IMG/VR virus record: IMGVR_UViG_2718218131_000006
Origin: a virus
Lineage: Duplodnaviria > Heunggongvirae > Uroviricota > Caudoviricetes
DNA length: 49,917 bases
Reading direction: 5' to 3' (one strand)
Shown here piece by piece: positions 9,996 to 41,168 of the stretch. A model generated the notes under the pieces. The model ran no database searches, was not told the origin of the DNA, and saw only the letters and a list, made by a program, of their open reading frames with translations. Both the position numbers and the translations under genes were made by a program. Each line of letters starts with the position of its first letter. Within the stretch, counting starts at the first letter, position 1.

Positions 9996-12571
9996 CGCCT
10001 GCCTCCGGAAAAGACGCCGCCATCACGCATCTGCGCCTGAATCTCATCCTGCGCCCCCTTGCGGGCCATGTCATACACCGCCTTCATCAGCTGCGGCCCC
10101 GCCTGTCCGTTGGTGCCGTCGTTCTGAATCACCACGTGATTGTTCTGATTAAAACTAATGCCTTCCGCCCGCCGCATCTGCGCCGGACTTCCGGCACCGC
10201 CCACATAACCACCTTCCGCATACCCGCGCATCAGACGATACAGGTTGCCGACGCCAATCCGGCTGGTTGCCTCCTTCGTGAAGACAAACTCCCCGCGGTG
10301 GACAATACCGGCAGGTTCGTATTTGCCACCGGTTCCCGTAAATCCTCCGGTCGCGAAATGGAAGTTCGCCGCCGCAGCCTGAATGGCCGTCCCCGTGGAG
10401 GCAGACGCCCCACCACCGAAAGCACCACCCATGGCGCTGCCAATACTCCCGACAATCCCCACCATGGCCTGCTTCAGAAAAATCTCTGTCAGCATGGAGA
10501 GCACAGAACGGGTGAAACCACGCCAGCTCTGTTCGCTGCCGGTCAGCATCGCTGCCATATTCTGTGCAATACCGTCAAAGGTCTGCGTGGCCACGCTTTT
10601 AACCTGCGAAAAACTGTCCGTCGCACTTTCTGCCCACTCGCCCCAGCCGGACTTCAGACCGGCCATCCAGCTTCCACGAAGCTGCTCCTCCGCAGACCAG
10701 GTGTTCTTCAGTGCAGATGTGGCCTTCGCCAGCGCATCCGGATTATCACCGTACACGTCACGAAGGCGCTGCTCTTCCGACTCCCGCTGCGCCTGACGGT
10801 CGGTGAGTCCGCGGGCTTTTGCGCTGATTGCCGCCTGCTTCGCACTCTGCTGCTGTTCAAACCGCGCAGCCTGCTGTGCCAGCTCATTCAGCCGTTTCTG
10901 GTGTTCAACTTTGTCTCCCAGCTCAGCCAGCTGGCGTTTGTACTCCAGCGTCTCTTTCTCATGGGTCAGCAGGGATTTTTCCTGCTCAGATAACTGCCGT
11001 TTCGTGGCTGCCTCTTTCAGGACCGCATACTGATTTTCCGCTTTCCATAAATCGCGACGCTGCTGGCTGATTTTCTCATTCGCACCGCTGTGTTTTTCCA
11101 GCGTCCGGAGCTCGGTTTCAAGCGCCAGCAGGGCAGCATGCGCCTGGTCTTCCTGACGCTCACCGGCTGACACTTTGACTCCTGACGACTTCGGCTTTTT
11201 CAGCGTCGATTCATAATCCTTTTTCGCCGCCGCCATCAGCGTGTTGTAATCCGCCTGCAGGATTTTCCCGTCTTTCAGGGCCTTATTCAGTTCTTCCTGA
11301 CGGGCGGTATATTTCTCCAGCGGCGTCAGCAGACGCTCATACGCCTTCTGCGCCTCTCCGGTATACTTCAGCTGTGATGCGTCCCGTTCGGCCCGGTCCC
11401 TGGCGGCCAGTTCACCGGCTTTTTCCATATCCGACTGCAGCGTGGCCGCTGCCAGCCCCAGACGGGCATTTTCCCGGTCATTCCATGCGCCCTGAAGGTT
11501 GGCCCGGAAAGAGGCGGTTTTTCCCCGGCGCTGGCTCCGGCTCTGGTACCACTGCCATTTTTTATCCGCCTCATCAAATGCCTTCTGTGCACTGGCGAGC
11601 ATATCCGCTGAGGACTCAGGACGACCGATATCCAGAATGGCATCCCACATCGATTTGAATGCCTTCCCTGTTTTATCCGCCCAGGTCTCCAGTGTTCCCA
11701 TGTTTTCTTTCAGGCGACGGGTCTGCTCATCAAAGCCTTTCGTGGCGATATCGTTCGCCGCCTGCAATGCCCCGGCCTCGTCTCCGGAACGCTGCAGCTG
11801 TGCAACATACGCAATCTGCTCTGCCGTCACGTTACGGAACTGGCGCGCCATCGCCATCAGTCCCGACGTCGGGTCGGTGGTCAGTTTTCCGAAAGCCTCT
11901 GCAACCTTGTCCACCTCCACACCGGATGCAGACGCAAAACGCGCGACACTCTGGTTGATGGCATCAAACTGTTCACCACCACGCACACCGGCATTCACCA
12001 GGGCTGCCAGTGACTCACTCGCCTGGTTAAACGTCAGCCCTGCGGCCTGTCCGGCTCTGGAGAGCGTCAGCATGCGATCGGCAGTCAGTCCGGACTGATT
12101 ACCGGAAAGAACCAGGGTTTTATTAAACGCTGAAAGCGTGGAATCCCCCTGGTACCAGGCGTACGCCAGCGCACCTGTCGCCACCGCCAGCGAGGTGACC
12201 CCGACCATCGGCAGGGTGATCGCACCGGCAAGTCCCCTGAACATGGGGATCATCCCGCCGAAGGAGTCCTTCACCTGACCGCCCTGTTGCAGCAGGATCA
12301 GCCAGGGATTCTGACCACCGGCAAGCTGCGTGGCGATATCCGTAAACTGTGCGGGCAGGGTTCGCATGGCCGCTTTATACTGCCCGACGGAAATCCCGGC
12401 TTTTTGTGCAGCCAGCGCCTGACGACTCAGGTTCTGCTCAACAACACCGGCGGTTTTTCTGGCGTCGGTATCCAGTCCGGAAAAATGACTCCTTACCCGG
12501 CTCATCTGCTCATCGAAACGGACCGCATCCAGACTCAGGTCAATAACAAGATCACCAACCGGCTGGGACAT
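9992..12571 (-). CDS. H: Tail tape measure protein H
   Basis: 859 aa; N-terminus MSQPVGDLVIDLSLDAVRFDEQM and long stretches match my memory of lambda H. Confidence 0.92.
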   Translation of the reverse strand: MSQPVGDLVIDLSLDAVRFDEQMSRVRSHFSGLDTDARKTAGVVEQNLSRQALAAQKAGISVGQYKAAMRTLPAQFTDIATQLAGGQNPWLILLQQGGQVKDSFGGMIPMFRGLAGAITLPMVGVTSLAVATGALAYAWYQGDSTLSAFNKTLVLSGNQSGLTADRMLTLSRAGQAAGLTFNQASESLAALVNAGVRGGEQFDAINQSVARFASASGVEVDKVAEAFGKLTTDPTSGLMAMARQFRNVTAEQIAYVAQLQRSGDEAGALQAANDIATKGFDEQTRRLKENMGTLETWADKTGKAFKSMWDAILDIGRPESSADMLASAQKAFDEADKKWQWYQSRSQRRGKTASFRANLQGAWNDRENARLGLAAATLQSDMEKAGELAARDRAERDASQLKYTGEAQKAYERLLTPLEKYTARQEELNKALKDGKILQADYNTLMAAAKKDYESTLKKPKSSGVKVSAGERQEDQAHAALLALETELRTLEKHSGANEKISQQRRDLWKAENQYAVLKEAATKRQLSEQEKSLLTHEKETLEYKRQLAELGDKVEHQKRLNELAQQAARFEQQQSAKQAAISAKARGLTDRQAQRESEEQRLRDVYGDNPDALAKATSALKNTWSAEEQLRGSWMAGLKSGWGEWAESATDSFSQVKSVATQTFDGIAQNMAAMLTGSEQSWRGFTRSVLSMLTEIFLKQAMVGIVGSIGSAMGGAFGGGASASTGTAIQAAAANFHFATGGFTGTGGKYEPAGIVHRGEFVFTKEATSRIGVGNLYRLMRGYAEGGYVGGAGSPAQMRRAEGISFNQNNHVVIQNDGTNGQAGPQLMKAVYDMARKGAQDEIQAQMRDGGVFSGGRR

Positions 12572-29459: not shown

Positions 29460-29993
29460 TTATCTGTCAATTCCCCAGCACGCCAGTGCACTTTCCTGGT
29501 CTCGCCGGGATACCTGACCGTAGCAATTATTTGAGCGGATACGGCAGTCTCTGCCACCGTCCTTAATCCACCAGCGAATCGCTTCGCAGGCACCTTTTCG
29601 ATCACCTGCATTAATCCGTCTGTAAAACGTAGACGGGAAACACTTACCGGGGCCAATGTTATAAGGACAAAATGACGCGATACCCGCCTTCTGGGGTTCG
29701 GTCAGCGGTACTTTAATATTGCGCTCCACCCACTCCAGCGCCTTATCACGTTCAATGGCGTTAACCTGGTCGCACTTTTCCTTCGATAACTTCATACCCG
29801 GGACGACAGGCTTACCATCCACTCGGGTGGCACCGCGGCAGATGGTCCAGATCCCCGCACCATCACGGTATGCCGTGGTGTGGTTACCTTCTTTTTCGTC
29901 AAGAAACTGGTCGAGGATTTCAGGCGCAGACGTCCCTGCACCAATCAGCGCCAGAACGGCAGCCGACAGGCCGTATCTGATTTTTGCGTTCAT
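29460..29993 (-). CDS. R: Signal-arrest-release (SAR) endolysin, T4-lysozyme-like
   Basis: N-terminal weakly hydrophobic SAR segment LSAAVLALIGAGTSAPE; lysozyme-like core in the family of phage 21 R. Confidence 0.85.
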   Translation of the reverse strand: MNAKIRYGLSAAVLALIGAGTSAPEILDQFLDEKEGNHTTAYRDGAGIWTICRGATRVDGKPVVPGMKLSKEKCDQVNAIERDKALEWVERNIKVPLTEPQKAGIASFCPYNIGPGKCFPSTFYRRINAGDRKGACEAIRWWIKDGGRDCRIRSNNCYGQVSRRDQESALACWGIDR

Positions 29994-35656: not shown

Positions 35657-36040
35657 ATGGAACCAAACATGCGCATTTTCAAAAATGCCTGGTTTGAACG
35701 CTTCGCACGAAAAAATCGGATTTCCGATAAAGCTCTGCGAGAAGTCGTGGAACTAGCTGATAAGGGACTCATATCCGCAGATTTGGGTAGTGGTGTCATT
35801 AAGCAGCGATTAGCCCGAAGAGGTGGCGGTAAATCAGGCGGTTATAGGACAATAATTTTTTACCGCGTCGCAGAAAAGGCTTTTTTCATCTATGCGTACG
35901 CAAAGAATGAGAGAGAAAATATTACAGCCATCGAGGAAAACGCATTTCGAAAAGCTGCGCATCACGTTCTCAATCTTACTGATGAACAACTGGCGCAATT
36001 GATCCTGCAAGGTCAGTTTACGGAGGTACCCAATGAGTAA
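35657..36040 (+). CDS. HigB2/Gp49-like (RelE/ParE superfamily) toxin
   Basis: GSGVIKQRLARRGGGKSGGYRTIIFYRVAEKAFFIYAYAKNE matches the HigB-2/Gp49 pattern; start could be 35669. Confidence 0.65.
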   Translation: MEPNMRIFKNAWFERFARKNRISDKALREVVELADKGLISADLGSGVIKQRLARRGGGKSGGYRTIIFYRVAEKAFFIYAYAKNERENITAIEENAFRKAAHHVLNLTDEQLAQLILQGQFTEVPNE

Positions 36041-36350
36041 AAATTACCGCAGTGATGCACTTGCATCCGTACATGAAATGATGGAGTCACTTCAGGATAT
36101 TGGCGCAGTTACAAAACAAACTATGAGAGAGTTTGATGAACTCTGTCTGCAACCAGCGCCAACAATGTCGCCAGAAAGAATCCGGGCACTTCGCGAGCGC
36201 GAGCATCTGTCTCAACCTGTTTTCGCCAGATATCTTAATGTCAGTAAAAACCTCATTTCAGACTGGGAAAGGGGAATAAAGCGCCCTGGTGGCCCTGCCC
36301 TTCGTTTGCTTTCTGTGGTTGAGAAAAACGGAATTCAGTCAATCTGTTAA
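36033..36350 (+). CDS. HigA2-like XRE-family helix-turn-helix antitoxin
   Basis: 105 aa with C-terminal helix-turn-helix LSQPVFARYLNVSKNLISDWERG; GGAGG ribosome-binding site; 8-nt overlap with the toxin stop. Confidence 0.65.
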   Translation: MSKNYRSDALASVHEMMESLQDIGAVTKQTMREFDELCLQPAPTMSPERIRALREREHLSQPVFARYLNVSKNLISDWERGIKRPGGPALRLLSVVEKNGIQSIC

Positions 36351-36371: not shown

Positions 36372-36401
36372 AAAACCCCGGACCATCAATCCGGGGTTTT
36401 T
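36372..36401 (+). terminator. Rho-independent terminator after the toxin-antitoxin operon
   Basis: CCCCGGA-ccatcaa-TCCGGGG then TTTTT. Confidence 0.7.
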
Positions 36402-36486
36402 GTTTGTTATCCCCAGCGGCAAATCGAATACACCACCAGCGCCACCGCCATCGCAATTCCTACCATTGTGAATGCTTCAGGCCAGG

Positions 36487-37017
36487 TCATTGATTCACCT
36501 CCTGCGGTGGTTCCGGTAGCGGCATCCAGTGAGTTGCCTGCTCAATACCATTACCCGGCTTAATCGTTGCTTCTCCTCGCCGGAATGTGCTTCCTGTATA
36601 GCGTGCGGAGCATATTAGCGGTTCAACCAGAGAGCTATCGAAATTCACCGAAATAAGCACGTTCTGGTTCTTTTCAGGCATCCGCTCACTACAGCTTATC
36701 CAACCATCCGGAATTACCGGCGCTGACGGCGCTGCGTAAAGCGGTGTTATTTCTGCCCGAAAGTCACCTATTTCATGCAGTCGCACCCAGCGTTCGACTT
36801 CTGCTTTGTCAGAATACATAGTGGTGAACGTATTATATTTATTGTCAATTTGCGTGAAGGTTGCCTTCCACGCCACTGGCTCTGCTTCCAGCGATGCCAG
36901 TGCAATCCGTGCCAGTTCTTCTGCTTCTTCTGCTGGCAGTACAACGTTGCTACCCGGTCCGTATGTTTCGCGCCACTGCTTGATTGTCAGCAGTCGCCCT
37001 TTGGTTATAGTGGTCAT
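36487..37017 (-). CDS. DUF551-domain phage protein
   Basis: C-terminal WISCSERMPE...ATHWMPLPEPP is the DUF551 hallmark. Confidence 0.65.
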   Translation of the reverse strand: MTTITKGRLLTIKQWRETYGPGSNVVLPAEEAEELARIALASLEAEPVAWKATFTQIDNKYNTFTTMYSDKAEVERWVRLHEIGDFRAEITPLYAAPSAPVIPDGWISCSERMPEKNQNVLISVNFDSSLVEPLICSARYTGSTFRRGEATIKPGNGIEQATHWMPLPEPPQEVNQ

Positions 37018-37223
37018 TTGTTAATCCTCAAAACTTTATGCCCGGGCGCAAAAGCACGCGTTTTGTCTTTGCTTATTCGCCAGCCATCCTTGCGCGCCTC
37101 TTTTGCACAGCCAGCCCATGACGTACCGATATATTCACCGAAGTCTGGCGTTTGATATTTACCATTTGTACACTGGCGACAATCACAGTAGAGATGCATG
37201 GTGTAACTTGCGGCAATAGCCAT
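37014..37223 (-). CDS. Small cysteine-rich hypothetical protein
   Basis: 69 aa from MAIAASYTMHLYCDCRQCTNGKY; AGGAGA ribosome-binding site; ATGA overlap with the downstream gene. Confidence 0.55.
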   Translation of the reverse strand: MAIAASYTMHLYCDCRQCTNGKYQTPDFGEYIGTSWAGCAKEARKDGWRISKDKTRAFAPGHKVLRINK

Positions 37224-37224
37224 A

Positions 37225-37995
37225 TCACTCTCCTTTGATGCGAATACCAGCAGCGCGCTCGGCTTCACTTTGTTCCCAAAACCACTTGTGAAGCGCCATA
37301 AGCTTTTCGTCAATCGGTGCATATTTGCGATTAAAGTAGGCCTGAGCATCTTTCTCAGATTCGTCCGGTAATTCGCCAGGGCCAAACAGTGTGTTATAAA
37401 TCCATGCTAGTCCGCTCTTAGCGTCGCCAGTTGCCTGCCATTCGATAATGGCAGCCTGCATGACCAGAATGTTTTTCCCGATTAATAGGTCCAGTTCTTT
37501 GTACCGGTTGCGGATGTATGCATTCTCGCTTTGTAATTTTGCGTTGCGCTTTTCTGAGGCTTCAAGTAACGCCTGCTTATCGCGTAGCGCTTCTTCCAGT
37601 TCAGCAACATGGCATTCACTATCAATAAGGTTGTTCTCTGCTGCTTCAAGCTCAACACGCAGCTTCCCAACCGTAAGCGCAATCTCCTCGTTCTCCTGAT
37701 CGCGGCGTTTTATGTATTGCTGGTTTCTTTCCCGTTCATCCAGTAGTGCCAGCACGGTAGCCGGGTTAGCCTCTGCTATGAATTCAGCGTTTGCATAAGC
37801 CTGAGCATCTGTTTCAACCAGGCAGTTAACGTGACATTCTGCAATTACGCCACCGGGTTCTCCTTTCCATTTTTGACAAACAAAAACTCCTGTTAAATTG
37901 CCGTGCTGGTTAACAGATGTATGCCCTACGATGTAGCTTCCTTTAGTTGCTTTCTCTGCCTTTTCACGCAGTGCCTGAAAGTCAATCTTGCTCAC
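37225..37995 (-). CDS. Paralogue 1 of a mosaic phage protein family (possibly Ead/Ea22-like), GTG start
   Basis: AAGGAGG then GTG; begins SKIDFQALREKAEKATKG; coiled-coil C-terminus. Confidence 0.6.
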   Translation of the reverse strand: MSKIDFQALREKAEKATKGSYIVGHTSVNQHGNLTGVFVCQKWKGEPGGVIAECHVNCLVETDAQAYANAEFIAEANPATVLALLDERERNQQYIKRRDQENEEIALTVGKLRVELEAAENNLIDSECHVAELEEALRDKQALLEASEKRNAKLQSENAYIRNRYKELDLLIGKNILVMQAAIIEWQATGDAKSGLAWIYNTLFGPGELPDESEKDAQAYFNRKYAPIDEKLMALHKWFWEQSEAERAAGIRIKGE

Positions 37996-38675
37996 TGGTT
38001 GCCTCCTTTGCGAAGCTGTTCCGCACAATGCAGCAGGGCGTCCGTCGCTTCTTTCACCGTAACGATGTCGCCATCGTCCAGCCCGACAACCGTCGCGTCC
38101 TTAACGAACACCGAGCAAAGGTCATTAAACGCCTGCGCCCGCACTTCAGCCAGGAAAGCGTCGGTGGCTGGCGTTTCCCGTGAACGGTAAGACCAAACAA
38201 TGTCGTCTGTTTCACTGGGTTCTTCATGAGAGCAATTTGGGCAGACAGCAGTACAACCAGCATGATCTTCTATGAGCATCTTCAGCCACGAGTTCTCCTC
38301 CGCCAGCGTCACGCGACTGGCCTCCAGTTCTGCTACGCGCTGTTTTGCAGCATCCAGTTCAATCGACAATTTTTCCAACTGCTCTTTATGCTTTTTATAT
38401 TCCTGATATGCGTGCCAAGACTGACCTTTGCGCACACTATCAGTGATATCAGTAATCTGTTCTGGTGTTAGCGTGGTCAGTGGCTGTGATGGGAAAATAA
38501 GCACTTTCCCGGAATCCCAATCAAAACCAGCGTGAATTGACTGAACCTCAACTGAAGGTGTTGAACCAATGCTGCCAGGCGAATGAACAACGATTGTTAC
38601 ATCCATATCGCGACGATGGCTGTGGTTGTTGGACAAAATACGATTCACCAACTCAGAAAATTTGGAAAATTTCAT
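37992..38675 (-). CDS. Paralogue 2 (shares a C-terminal module with paralogue 3)
   Basis: ATG at 38675 with AAAGGGGAA ribosome-binding site; contains [19 protein letters not shown]; GTGA overlap downstream. Confidence 0.6.
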   Translation of the reverse strand: MKFSKFSELVNRILSNNHSHRRDMDVTIVVHSPGSIGSTPSVEVQSIHAGFDWDSGKVLIFPSQPLTTLTPEQITDITDSVRKGQSWHAYQEYKKHKEQLEKLSIELDAAKQRVAELEASRVTLAEENSWLKMLIEDHAGCTAVCPNCSHEEPSETDDIVWSYRSRETPATDAFLAEVRAQAFNDLCSVFVKDATVVGLDDGDIVTVKEATDALLHCAEQLRKGGNQ

Positions 38676-38962
38676 GCTGATTCCCCTTTCTCTGCTCTCT
38701 CCTGTCGGAACATCACTATCATCAGGTCGCCTTTTGTCGCTATCCTGGCTGTTGTACCTGGTTCAATGCGGCTAAGCTCAAATGCGTCATAGAACGCTTC
38801 TAATGCCTTCTGGCGTAGTTCCTGTTTGCGCCGTTTTTTCCACTGTTTTAGGAAAATGGAACCCAGCCATCGCCATGTGCGGGACATGATGTAAAGCCAA
38901 CCGAGAAGTGCCAGACCGGTATTTAGGAGCGCATCGATCGTTATTGTCGTGTCGATATTCAC
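38672..38962 (-). CDS. Small hypothetical membrane protein, GTG start
   Basis: AAGGAAG then GTG; hydrophobic helix ALLNTGLALLGWLYIMS; ATGA and GTGA overlaps with neighbours. Confidence 0.5.
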   Translation of the reverse strand: MNIDTTITIDALLNTGLALLGWLYIMSRTWRWLGSIFLKQWKKRRKQELRQKALEAFYDAFELSRIEPGTTARIATKGDLMIVMFRQERAEKGESA

Positions 38963-39660
38963 TGGCTGCTTCCTTTGCGAATCTGTTCCGCCCATTCTTC
39001 AAGGGATTTCTCCGCATATTCACCAGACAGGCCATCAATCGGATGCGCTTCATTAGCCAACTCTTCTTTCGCTGACAAAATCATGCGTGTAACGTCGAAA
39101 ACTTCACGCAAAGACTTATTGATAAATCCGTGATTGAACGCAGCAGCAAGACGGCTGGCGGTATAGTTAATCCCCTCGTTGCGTGCTTCCGCACGAATTT
39201 CAGCCAGAAAAGCATCGGTAGCTGGAGTTTCGCTGTGGTGTAGGGCATCGTTGATAATCATTGCAGCAACACCAGCCTGCCCTGCATCCGTGACCGACAC
39301 ATGATCAAGAGTTACAGCCATTGCGTGTTTCAGCCCGGCGTTCTCTGCCACCAGAGCCGCGAGCTTAGTCTCAAGCGGTGCTATTCGGCACATAGCATCA
39401 ATATTTGTGTCCTCCAGGCGCTTAATTTCACCAAGTAGCTCCAGTGCAACCTTTGGGTTGAATGCGGCAATATAACGAGCGTTGTTCTCTGCGTTTTTCA
39501 GTCCATCAAAGCCGGTCCATTTGATAACATCTTCACATCGTTTATCACCGGGCGTATGCACAGCATACGTACCTGTACCCGTCGAAATAAACGCGACCCA
39601 TTCGCCCTGTGTTGCCTGTTTTGCTATCTCACGTAGTGCCTGATAGTTAATTTTGCTCAC
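38959..39660 (-). CDS. Paralogue 3 (N-terminus like paralogue 1, C-terminus like paralogue 2), GTG start
   Basis: AGGAGG then GTG; [20 protein letters not shown] and [23 protein letters not shown]. Confidence 0.6.
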
Positions 39661-40399
39661 TGGTTGCCTCCTGGCAAAGCTGGGCGACAATATCGCGATA
39701 TTTATTCAGCTCCCGCAGCGCGACACAGACTCGCTCCCATTTCCGGATATCACTTTTCGCCCGACGCAGTTCGCGGTTTGCCTGTCGCAGCGATGGCAGA
39801 ACCAGATTATCCACTCGATTCTCAAGCGGCTGCACAATGTCTGCCACAGTTTCTGTTTTAATATCTTCCTGTGTTGCAGCTTCCTGTCCCGGTAACGCAA
39901 CACCTGCTGGTTGAGGAAAGGCCTTACCATCACTTTCCGTTACCAGCGCGGCTTTCGGCTCTGCTGGTAAATTATCGCCCGGCATGCAGTAACGAAATTT
40001 ACCGTTCTGATTAACGCGTGCCAGCCGCCCCGTTGCGGTTACCACCGCCAGCGTGGAAGCAACCTTGCGAGTACTGACACCGAACTTACCCGCCAGTTCC
40101 TCACACGTTTTAGCCCCATCCTGACCGATAAACTCAATCATCATGTCTGCGGTAACTTTTTGTTCGACCTCCCCGGTCAGCATATCCTGTGCTTCAGATT
40201 TTACTGGCCGCTCTTCGGTTACCCGGGATTCACCTTCGCCAGCCAGAGACCAGGTGTGACCAGTTTTATCAACAACGCCATTTCTTTTGAGTTCCCACAG
40301 CTCGTTGACAGCCTCTTCACGACTGATATCAAGTCGCGCAGCCAGTTCTACCGACGTGGCTTTTCCCATTGCTTTCAGTGCGTCAAATACAGTTTCCAT
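39647..40399 (-). CDS. Hypothetical protein with possible N-terminal winged helix
   Basis: GGGAGG ribosome-binding site before ATG at 40399; N-terminus [43 protein letters not shown]. Confidence 0.55.
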
Positions 40400-40421
40400 T
40401 AAAATTTCCTCCCGGTAAAAA

Positions 40422-41168
40422 TCACTTCGCAATTCCTGGCTGGACGACATTCGGACGCCAGCTCTCCCAGTTAAAATTCACCCATCGCCCGCCGTTCATG
40501 GTCATGCGATCCATAATCCGCTCGCCGAGCAATGTTTTCATGGCCTCATAGTTCAGGTTTGTCAGCATCCCCACGCTGCGCATCGACGCTGTCCGGCGAT
40601 CAACAATCTGGTGCAGCACCACCTGCTCGTTTTTTGTCTCGCGCTGAATGCCAATTTCATCAAGAACCAGCAGATCCACTTGGCACAGTTCCCGCAAAAA
40701 TTTTTCGCCTGATTGCCCGTCGTCATAGCTGGCGTGTAGAGCACTCATGACATCAGCCACGGTAACCACAATCACTGTCTGGCCATCTTTCAGCAGGCGA
40801 TTCCCGATAGCCGCCGCCAGATGGTTTTTTCCGGTACCAGGTTTTCCGCTGAACGCAAAATTTGTACACCCGGTCATCAGTTCATCAGCGATAGATTTCG
40901 CCTGGTTCAACGCGTATCGCTGACCGTCGTTCTGCACCTGGTAATTCGCAAACGAGCATTTGCGGTGCAATGGCTGGATGCCAGAGCGATTCAGAATTTT
41001 TTCCACCCGCAACTGACGATTCTGACGGTTGATCTCCTCACAACGTTTCTGGCCTTCGGAAAGTTGCCACTCGCGCCACTCCGCTACCGTTTTGAATGGG
41101 GCGGTTACATGTGGCGGGGCCAGTCTGCGGATACGTTCAAGAATGCCTCCTGCCGCAATATTTTTCAT
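40422..41168 (-). CDS. DnaC-like replicative helicase loader (AAA+)
   Basis: Walker [11 protein letters not shown], Walker [10 protein letters not shown]; follows the O-like gene. Confidence 0.85.

Follow-up and report, generated by a model that had tools for sequence, protein, structure and literature searches.

Layout of the gene run

The window, that is, the whole 49,917-nucleotide stretch of viral DNA analysed here, carries on its minus strand an array of four genes (positions 37225–39660), all of which are present as first described. In the direction of reading, they encode P3 (39660–38959, 233 aa, GTG start), a DUF4752 protein (38962–38672, 96 aa, GTG start), P2 (38675–37992, 227 aa, ATG start), and P1 (37995–37225, 256 aa, GTG start). 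The RefSeq gene calls on a 100% identical E. coli chromosome are identical for all four genes, and P3 is labeled there as 'ead/Ea22-like family protein' (WP_059239302.1). Upstream lies a DUF1627 (YdaW-like) gene on the same strand (39647–40399; PF07789, E = 4e-85, and RefSeq), the last 14 nt of which overlap P3. Downstream of P1, the same run continues on the minus strand with the gene of a 69-aa phrog_926 protein (37223–37014), a homologue of 933W L0068, and with a DUF551 protein gene (37017–36487) that is homologous to a DUF551-containing block. Because a scan of the run for promoters and terminators found none above shuffled sequences within the array, we read the array as situated in one operon. 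The genes, their family, and the mosaicism of that family are already documented in RefSeq and in the Ea22 literature.

The junctions along the run comprise two GTGA overlaps, two ATGA overlaps (including phrog_926/DUF551), one TGAtATG, and one 14-nt overlap, with a GGAG-type core about 6 nt before each start. The GTG of the DUF4752 gene overlaps the P3 stop and the GTG of P1 overlaps the P2 stop, both as GTGA, and the DUF4752 protein ends in EKGESA*, its TGA overlapping the P2 ATG. From P1 to the next gene, the arrangement is TGA-t-ATG, with a 1-nt spacer and no overlap. The GTG of P3 also lies within a GTGA, but this TGA is not the upstream stop; the DUF1627 gene reads the junction in another frame (QEATSEQN*) and stops 11 nt further on. 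The preliminary description, which had proposed strong ribosome-binding sites combined with GTGA/ATGA coupling, holds for three of the four starts; at P3, the overlap is 14 nt.

Stop–start overlaps of the ATGA/GTGA type are an established layout of translational coupling in bacterial and phage operons. The junctions described here have the same four-base overlap, with a Shine–Dalgarno sequence that lies within the upstream gene, some 6 nt ahead of the start codon, and are in no way unusual except that the Shine–Dalgarno sequence imposes a K/R-G-E/G tail on otherwise unrelated proteins. On this layout, translation along the run is probably coupled.

Several of these junctions resemble one another. 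The P3 5′ junction (39611–39672, minus strand; CAGGAGGCAACCAGTGAGCAAAATT...), which holds a Shine–Dalgarno sequence, the GTGA, and the first codons, is a repeat of 37946–38007. The P2/P1 junction (37946–38027, minus strand; GCGGAACAGCTTCGCAAAGGAGGCAACCAGTGAGCAAGATT) combines the P2 tail codons with the Shine–Dalgarno sequence and GTG of P1, and matches both 39611–39672 and the P3/DUF4752 junction (38959–38994, minus strand; GCGGAACAGATTCGCAAAGGAAGCAGCCAGTGAAT). We refer to the latter type of 3′ linker as class B. The 3′ linker of P1 (37221–37251, minus strand; GCTGGTATTCGCATCAAAGGAGAGTGAtATG) belongs to a different type, class A, in which the codons of KGE* form the apparent Shine–Dalgarno sequence of the next gene.

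Modular proteins of the Ead/Ea22 family

P1 and P3 match the Pfam family Ead_Ea22 (PF13935/IPR025153) with 121.7 bits (E = 4.4e-35) and 91.6 bits (E = 8.5e-26), respectively, against a gathering score of 27 bits. P2 has no PF13935 match at E ≤ 0.01 and no other match in the Pfam scan; it is tied to the family only via phrog_368, which P3 matches over its full length, and via shared C-terminal parts, and it additionally matches phrog_6026. The family assignment of the preliminary description is borne out by PF13935 for P1 and P3; P2 is left without a Pfam match. The 96-aa protein matches PF15944 (142.4 bits, E = 4.7e-42, profile positions 1–83 of 84; gathering score likewise 27 bits) and phrog_667. 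It had been described as a membrane protein separating the paralogues; it lies only between P3 and P2, and a membrane location is plausible, as it contains a single hydrophobic stretch (aa ~7–25) of borderline strength (Kyte–Doolittle 1.5 over 19 aa). An NCBIfam search returned nothing for any array protein, and PDB sequence searches with P1, P2, and P3 returned coiled-coil or repeat noise only.

Pairwise BLASTP aligns P1 with P3 over the N-terminal 131 aa (32% identity, E = 1e-7) and P2 with P3 over 84 aa (36% identity, E = 9e-8), and finds no significant similarity between P1 and P2. The modules that P1/P3 and P2/P3 had been said to have in common are thus seen by BLASTP and DNA self-comparison alike. 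P3 consists of an N-domain, a predicted coiled coil, a joint with the motif (V/I)RA, a C-terminal domain, and an RKGSSQ* tail. P2 comprises an N-domain (aa 1–~113), a long helix (aa 87–139), a variable middle, the (V/I)RA joint, and a short C-terminal domain with the tail AEQLRKGGNQ*; P1 ends in GIRIKGE*. The common 3′ end of P2 and P3, AEQ(L/I)RKGxxQ*, is a further repeat that had previously been missed. AlphaFold2 models show long helices in P2 (aa 87–139) and P3 (aa 87–119) followed by helical C-terminal parts, with a pLDDT of only 57 and 39, respectively; the underlying alignments have 19–20 rows, and the domain boundaries rest on secondary structure only. In these low-confidence models, the (V/I)RA joint of P3 (39185–39231, minus strand), which opens the C-terminal domain, marks the start of helix 147–176, and that of P2 (38131–38177, minus strand) the start of helix 169–196.

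Taken together, P1 and P3 carry the canonical N-domain, and P2 a different one on the same chassis of coil, joint, and tail. This P2 N-domain has 531 representative relatives, and Pfam covers it in none of the 10 distant relatives scanned. In alignment A1, the P2 N-domain is invariant and the middle and C-terminal cassettes are swapped. A search of genome contigs with patterns from the P3 alignment, using narrow patterns and one genome per species, yielded only five loci.

Relationship to Ea22 of lambda and Stx phages

P1 is 97% identical to L0069, the Ea22 protein of Stx phage 933W. With lambda Ea22 it shares a 48-aa coil segment (79% identity) and the GIRIKGE* tail. The lambda and 933W proteins are made up of an N-region, a coiled coil, and a C-terminal domain that varies, a plan that seems to recur here, and their genes likewise start with a GTG inside a GTGA, which there overlaps the stop of an orf73/TraR-like gene. 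The setting differs: lambda and 933W ea22 lie between exo and xis in the leftward (pL) operon, whereas the array belongs to a rightward operon, that of a Rac-like prophage, and comes there after the replication genes, behind ydaV-like and DUF1627 genes. The exo–xis position after an orf73/TraR-like gene, absent here, is a habit of the studied phages and not part of the Pfam definition. In further contrast to studied Ea22, three family genes stand in one run here, and the C-terminal domains and RKGxxQ tails of P2 and P3 are unlike those of studied Ea22 proteins.

A mosaic structure with different C-terminal domains has been described for the Ea22 variants V1–V3 of Stx phages and EHEC (Goddard, Nejman-Falenczyk & Donaldson, 2024; PMC10834534). 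The principle there is the same, namely a shared N-segment and coil with unrelated C-terminal sequences, and one short segment occurring in two variants as well as partial duplications in the region are found likewise. That work compares single ea22 genes between phages and, as far as it could be read, its variants include no protein of the P2 type, in which the N-domain is replaced.

The '+GE' tail and the start of the next gene

The C-terminal basic-Gly-Glu motif of Ea22, termed '+GE', is of unknown significance according to Dydecka et al (2020). P1 ends in this tripeptide (IKGE*), and P2 (RKGGNQ*) and P3 (RKGSSQ*) keep the K-G in a shifted position. At the DNA level, the class-A junction is ATCAAAGGAGAGTGAnATG, coding for IKGE*, and the class-B junction AAAGGAGGCAACCAGTGA, coding for RKGGNQ*. 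In both, the segment AAAGGAG(G)...GTGA/ATG appears to do double duty, encoding the tail of one gene and providing the Shine–Dalgarno sequence and start of the next, with a spacing to the start of about 6 nt in either class.

We surveyed 167 unique 3′ ends of family ORFs from 241 IMG/VR loci. In 94 of the 167, the following gene starts at −1, as an xTGA overlap, and in another 39 at +4; no next start was found in nine. As the loci were picked by similarity to P1–P3 and are mutually related, codon and breakpoint counts drawn from them are not independent events; with this caveat, Gly after Lys/Arg is encoded by GGA at 131 of 140 junctions, compared with 20% for the remaining Gly codons of these genes, and the codon pair AAA-GGA occurs in 126 of the 140 K/R-G junctions. 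AAA and GGA hardly vary at their third positions, whereas the neighboring codons do. In class-A tails (n = 23 unique), ATT-CGC-ATC-AAA-GGA shows no third-position variation and GAG next to none. Most likely, then, the Ea22 '+GE' tail reflects the ribosome-binding site from which the next gene is translated. PMC8614690 and PMC10834534 do not treat the gene junctions as Shine–Dalgarno or linker elements; the word 'Shine' was found in neither, and 'ribosome binding' was not found in PMC8614690.

The main alternative is that protein function alone preserves the joints and, with them, the +GE/RKG tail, for instance as an oligomerization element, binding epitope, or degradation tag, any link to the next start or to recombination being incidental. 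In Dydecka et al, +GE is regarded as a protein motif, and lambda ea22 keeps AAAGGAGAGTGA, and thus IRIKGE, without a start or coupled gene after it (TGAGATC...), so that the tail can persist uncoupled, whether it is a relic or is retained for the sake of the protein. The (V/I)RA joint, too, is conserved at the amino-acid level with free third positions (entropy 0.28, 0.09, and 0.81 at codon positions 1, 2, and 3), which points to protein-level selection on this joint. The tail, however, is conserved at the nucleotide level, as the codon counts above indicate, and the same bases are used in a different frame after DUF1627. In the DUF4752 protein, the K-G-E is displaced by two codons further upstream and the spacing to the start is kept, and this spacing of about 6 nt is common to both linker classes. 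Unrelated proteins of these operons end in KGE as well, among them 933W L0068; the 933W version of the tail reads AGA-GGT-GAG-TAATG. A purely protein-level explanation is therefore unlikely in our view. If the tail is a Shine–Dalgarno sequence, as we favor, truncations, tags, and deletions of ea22 would also change how the downstream gene is expressed, so that phenotypes could be confounded. This simple reading of a tail listed as unexplained in Ea22 papers is one of two useful points of the locus, the discovery value of which is otherwise small: ordinary accessory genes of a heavily shuffled known family.

Possible role of the run

As a whole, the locus is quite probably a coupled accessory run of Ea22-family modulators, the joints of which act as ribosome-binding linkers and as exchange points. 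It would be carried by an E. coli lambdoid prophage of the Rac/Qin type, in the early-right operon, which is nin-equivalent and follows the replication genes. Three of the four genes encode modular coiled-coil proteins of the Ead/Ea22 family, and the junctions would provide stop–start coupling between successive genes. Ea22 of lambda and Stx phages is an early, non-essential protein that tilts the decision towards lysogeny, and lambda Ea22 forms a tetramer with a dimeric C-terminal domain (PMC7093339; PMC10834534). By analogy, the array would most likely represent a set of developmental or host-interaction modulators. The 97% identity of P1 to 933W Ea22, which is pro-lysogenic by experiment, suggests the same role, and perhaps the tetrameric state, for P1, the transfer of function being limited because the lambda/933W gene sits in a different operon (pL exo–xis). 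Our searches found no experimentally studied relative of P2, P3, or the DUF4752 protein.

The extreme diversity of cassettes between fixed joints, together with the variable content of the accessory slot among related prophages, could also be taken as the mark of a diversifying arms-race locus (defense or anti-defense), in which the variable C-terminal cassettes are target-recognition modules under selection for novelty. The C-terminal domain of P1 is in fact matched by the PADLOC model PDLC02890 'DpdH' (E = 1.6e-36). Yet canonical DpdH/I is a BREX-like, BrxC-type factor, no dpd genes lie nearby, and the 120 best relatives of this P1 domain are, without exception, prophage proteins of the Ead/Ea22-like kind. 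P2, P3, and the DUF4752 protein have no meaningful PADLOC match, and the family has a single tested phenotype, namely a shift towards lysogeny. We thus regard an arms-race locus as decidedly improbable.

P1 itself was considered as a DpdH and rejected: DpdH is a large BrxC-like ATPase from dpd clusters that contain 7-deazaguanine genes, whereas in P1 the 127-position PADLOC model covers only aa 145–243 (99 aa), and dpd neighbors are lacking. Based on the DpdH literature and the domain relatives, we judge the label to be a mislabeled or hitch-hiking model. A polymorphic-toxin-like organization, at which a conserved motif ahead of a variable C-terminus might hint, was likewise discarded, as the array shows no toxin/immunity signature and the cassettes measure 40–70 aa, each closed by a second conserved joint.

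A bolder extension of the modulator reading, to which we assign a similarly low probability, is that co-expressed paralogues, sharing coil parts, might form mixed tetramers that display combinations of cassettes. The cassettes would then be target-recognition modules diversifying in phage–host or phage–phage conflict, and the junctions, with their ribosome-binding sites, would act as a cassette-exchange system for either early operon.

Reassortment and the possible role of the joints

The coupled run of Ea22-family modulators would also have its mosaicism explained by the joints. The class-B linker occurs in 93 unique contexts, joining 14 upstream C-terminus/stop-offset types to 21 downstream N-termini in 37 combinations of partner types. 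Similarly, 72 unique motif-bearing proteins comprise 11 head, 11 middle, and 12 tail types in 36 combinations, including 14 four-combination sets, and reassortment is directly visible in alignments A1 and A2. The joints, which make up 22% of the array, contain 63% of 651 dereplicated internal similarity endpoints, where an HSP end marks the place at which similarity stops and not a crossover position. The p-value computed for this concentration should not be taken for a real probability, the loci being related to one another. Reassortment and the clustering of breakpoints together argue for recombination at the joints; for the (V/I)RA joint, the case for a role as crossover site is circumstantial.

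Lambdoid phages are known to recombine at short conserved flanks, and Red/RecT-type homeologous recombination is likewise a close known parallel. According to PMC2327257, which cites Clark et al (2001, J Mol Biol 311:657), short conserved boundary sequences flank non-homologous modules and, being common to a subset of phages, offer homology for exchange, as is the case here. The class-B junction has alternative non-homologous genes on both of its sides across phages, in keeping with such a boundary sequence. Here, the linker coincides with the ribosome-binding site and start of the next gene, and upstream genes translate it in two frames or more. The joints would thus offer short homology through which phage recombinases swap whole or half genes between lambdoid phages, yielding a mosaic across the population and not within this prophage.

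DNA self-comparison of the array gave exactly three off-diagonal matches: 39629–39672 with 37964–38007 (44 nt, 91%, 56 bits), 38959–38991 with 37992–38024 (33 nt, 91%, 42 bits), and 39199–39231 with 38145–38177 (33 nt, 88%, 34 bits). All exceed the best score from 100 shuffles (28 bits), so that the internal similarity expected of a dot plot is present. The preliminary description had taken this similarity as the record of module exchange in situ, which the comparison with other phages does not support, as the repeats are no closer here than between any members of the family. The P2/P3 (V/I)RA stretch has 77% DNA identity, against a median of 79% when 42 unique copies found in other phages are each compared with every other, and the P1/P3 5′ junction has 79%, against a population median of 77% (55 unique copies). 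Each paralogue has 96–100% identical copies elsewhere in other gene contexts. The shared modules are thus best regarded as family-wide conserved joints, with shuffling presumably taking place at the population level among lambdoid phages. Duplication within this prophage followed by module exchange or gene conversion between neighboring copies, for which the three direct repeats in register between neighboring genes and the physical closeness of tandem family genes might speak, is very improbable, given that the repeats are only 77–91% identical over 33–62 nt without detectable DNA similarity outside them, match the median of unrelated family copies, and belong to genes with near-identical copies in other orders and contexts, and that the block from P1 to DUF551 is ~95% identical to the exo–xis region of Stx phages.

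Spread of the region

The Ea22 block of the Stx exo–xis region thus travels in Rac-like rightward operons too, beside paralogues with other heads and tails. Of 5426 complete E. coli genomes, 4153 contain parts of this 4.1-kb region, so that several Ea22 paralogues per cell are to be expected in studies of Ea22 in EHEC.

Gene content and genomic setting of the array

The array consists of four minus-strand genes, which in transcription order encode P3 (39660-38959, GTG start, 233 aa), a DUF4752 protein (38962-38672, GTG start, 96 aa), P2 (38675-37992, ATG start, 227 aa), and P1 (37995-37225, GTG start, 256 aa). According to the ORF list and the sequence, it is preceded on the same strand by a DUF1627 (YdaW-like) gene (40399-39647) and followed by genes for a 69-aa protein (37223-37014) and a DUF551 protein (37017-36487). 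The E. coli strain Z1323CEC0005 carries a segment with 100% identity to 36400-40500 (4.1 kb), in which RefSeq calls the same seven genes with the same starts. Their RefSeq neighbours in this strain are dicB, ydfB, ydaS/ydaT-like genes, and genes for a YdaV-like ATPase, DUF968, RusA, and an antiterminator, which identify a Rac/Qin-like lambdoid prophage and place the array downstream of the replication genes in its rightward early operon.

The feature at 37225-39660 is real and was correctly spotted in the preliminary description, which had also proposed systematic start-stop overlaps. These exist at the starts of the DUF4752 gene (GTGA), P2 (ATGA), and P1 (GTGA), but not at that of P3: its GTG also sits within a GTGA, but the upstream DUF1627 gene uses a different frame there and terminates 11 nt later. 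P1 is separated from the next gene by a single base (TGAtATG). Promoter-like and terminator-like sites inside the run were no more frequent than in shuffled sequences.

Convergent to the array lies a plus-strand pair encoding a RelE/ParE-type toxin and an XRE-type antitoxin (35669-36350); a hairpin with an 11-bp stem and a T-run (36372-36400), beyond this pair, could serve as terminator for both converging transcripts. The DUF1627 protein (39647-40450) weakly matches winged-helix families at two places (HTH_11, MarR-like, FeoC, Crp-like) and, again weakly, a PHROG labelled as a Ren-like exclusion protein; it might bind DNA by means of two winged-helix units.

Domain composition of the encoded proteins

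The genes, the family, its mosaicism, and the coupling by overlaps are already known. Our additions are modest: a ribosome-binding-site account of the "+GE" tail, a junction used in several frames and with many partners, and a P2 head that lacks a Pfam family. The proposed Ead/Ea22-like assignment holds for P1 and P3, which score 121.7 and 91.6 bits against Pfam Ead_Ea22 (PF13935; cut-off 27). P2 has no match in Pfam; phrog_368 takes in P2, P3, and the head of P1. The 96-aa protein passes Pfam DUF4752 and has a single hydrophobic stretch of borderline hydropathy (1.5). P1 and the Ea22 protein of Stx phage 933W, L0069, are 97% identical; with lambda Ea22, P1 shares both a 48-aa coil segment (79% identity) and the ending GIRIKGE*. 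Ea22 is an early, non-essential, lysogeny-favouring protein of lambda and Stx phages (PMC7093339, PMC10834534), and the same group has already reported the family's mosaicism, in which a common head and coil carry C-terminal domains unrelated to one another. By analogy with 933W and lambda, a pro-lysogenic role might extend to the array, most credibly to P1.

The N-terminal domain of P2 (aa 1-100; 38376-38675) has 531 representative relatives at E<=1e-3, 247 of them at E<=1e-10, in proteins of 75-370 aa in which it is always N-terminal, and ten relatives that we scanned likewise lack a Pfam family. It is a real, uncharacterised phage domain family that merits a profile and a good structure model. 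PDB sequence searches with P1, P2, and P3 found nothing, and the AlphaFold2 models are poor (pLDDT 57 for P2, 39 for P3), so that we used their secondary structure alone. This predicts long helices at residues 87-139 of P2 and 87-119 of P3 and, in both proteins, a further helix starting exactly at the conserved (V/I)RA motif, which probably forms the first helix of the C-terminal domain.

In P1, this domain (aa 145-243; 37264-37563) matches the PADLOC model PDLC02890, labelled "DpdH", at E=1.6e-36. We rejected this identity: canonical DpdH/I is BrxC-like, and the domain's listed close relatives are all Ead/Ea22-like prophage proteins. The label looks either wrong or derived from a hitch-hiking prophage gene, and the model could produce false Dpd calls in prophages.

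Shared modules and their origin

DNA self-comparison of 37225-39700 bears out the proposed internal similarity, yielding three off-diagonal matches of 56, 42, and 34 bits against a top score of 28 bits in 100 shuffles. One (56 bits) covers the 5' junction and first codons of P1 and P3, and another (34 bits) the (V/I)RA stretch of P2 and P3; a further match (42 bits), absent from the preliminary description, joins the 3' ends of P2 and P3 (AEQ(L/I)RKGxxQ*). Outside these three stretches, the self-comparison detected no DNA similarity among the paralogues. At the protein level, BLASTP aligns P1 with P3 across the N-terminal 131 residues (32% identity, E=1e-7) and P2 with P3 across 84 residues (36%, E=9e-8), with no significant similarity between P1 and P2.

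The sharing had been taken as a record of module exchange in situ. However, among 240 IMG/VR loci with relatives of P1, P2, or P3, the shared stretches resemble one another within this prophage no more than they resemble any other copies: the (V/I)RA-motif 48-mers of P2 and P3 are 77% identical (median of all pairs among 42 unique copies, 79%), and the P1 and P3 5' junctions (62 nt) are 79% identical (population median 77%, 55 unique copies). Moreover, all three paralogues have near-identical copies elsewhere in other contexts, and in-situ exchange is therefore unsupported. The P1 C-terminal domain, for example, is 98-100% identical in 120/120 proteins among the matches listed (lengths 144-223 aa). 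Of 243 loci, 158 have arrays of two to four family genes, arranged in many different orders, and the slot between DUF1627 and DUF551 has quite different gene content in related Rac-like prophages.

The shuffling is instead best read as population-level cassette reassortment at conserved joints. Alignments of P2 and P3 relatives reveal invariant heads, alternative middles, the conserved motif, alternative C-terminal cores, and a conserved tail, with one middle cassette common to P2-type and P3-type heads. The 72 unique motif-bearing proteins fall into 36 combinations, built from 11 types of head, 11 of middle, and 12 of tail; 14 sets of two heads and two tails show every one of the four possible pairings, a pattern that cannot arise unless they recombine. 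Joint segments, 22% of the array, contain 63% of 651 dereplicated endpoints of similarity to the other loci, a clustering that is descriptive and not a probability, since the loci are related and were chosen by these proteins.

The depositors of Stx2 converting phage I (AP004402) had marked repeats ("arrangement cde", regions II and IV; 3873-4452 and 10212-10458 of the locus examined) overlapping ea22-like and EaA-like genes; internal repeats among such genes were thus noticed two decades ago in Stx phage genomes. Relatives of the C-terminal part of P3 appear in records labelled Chryseobacterium sp. 18061 (799-kb contig, 52% identity) and Actinomycetes (MAG, 3.2-kb contig, 77%); as the family is otherwise enterobacterial, this suggests contamination or mislabelling.

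Conserved joints and the "+GE" tail

Within the (V/I)RA motif, the entropies at the first, second, and third codon positions (0.28, 0.09, and 0.81) bear the signature of protein-level selection. At the gene junctions, conservation is of the nucleotide sequence: in each tail class, IKGE* (class A, as in P1) and RKGxxQ (class B, at P2/P1 and P3/DUF4752), AAA and GGA have (nearly) invariant third positions, while those of nearby codons vary. Of 167 unique 3' ends of family ORFs, 94 have a downstream start at -1 (xTGA overlap) and 39 at +4, counting starts that open an ORF of 40 codons or more; 9 have none.

The significance of the Ea22 "+GE" tripeptide was unknown to Dydecka et al. From the sequences, we read it as the putative footprint of the next gene's Shine-Dalgarno element, because several features converge on this account besides the third-position conservation. 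The glycine codon after Lys/Arg is GGA in 131/140 junctions (AAA-GGA in 126/140), against 20% of other glycine codons in the same genes, and in both classes a GGAG(G) core lies ~6 nt upstream of the start. The same bases are used in another reading frame at the DUF1627 end (QEATSEQN*); in the DUF4752 tail (EKGESA*), K-G-E stands two codons earlier with the spacing to the P2 ATG retained; and the unrelated 933W protein L0068 also ends in KGE. The Ea22 gene of 933W itself ends AGA-GGT-GAG-TAATG, in which AGA codes for Arg. This account was not found in the part of the Ea22 literature examined.

Lambda ea22 (1040-1060 of the lambda locus; lambda ~29840-29860) retains the AAAGGAGAGTGA tail and has lost the coupled start. 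Its relatives show TGAGATGAAC and then a 63-aa ORF; lambda has TGAGATCGG instead (TGAGATC rather than TGAGATG). Similarity to the relatives stops exactly at the missing start codon, which suggests that the gene boundary is an old rearrangement joint, with the lambda tail apparently left behind there as a relic. This exception leaves room for a protein-level role of the tail.

Portability of the junctions

We found 93 unique contexts, in 37 combinations, for the class-B junction (A[AG]GGA...CAGTGA). It is preceded by 14 C-terminus/stop-offset types, whose stops fall at three offsets from the GTG, and followed by 21 N-termini, among them those of Ead/Ea22 heads, of DUF4752, and of several unrelated genes. 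The junction resembles the short conserved flanking sequences that Clark et al (2001), as cited in PMC2327257, proposed as mediators of module exchange in lambdoid phages, and its portability fits the use of short or diverged homology by Red-/RecET-type recombinases. Portability is not limited to a single operon. The segment from P1 through the 69-aa protein to DUF551 (~36494-37996) matches the 933W exo-xis region (2501-4958 of the 933W locus) at ~95% identity in three pieces, and this match to the pL region recurs in Sakai and other Stx phages. The block belongs to the leftward operon in 933W-type Stx phages, whereas here it lies in the rightward one, after the replication genes; it has therefore moved between the two early operons.
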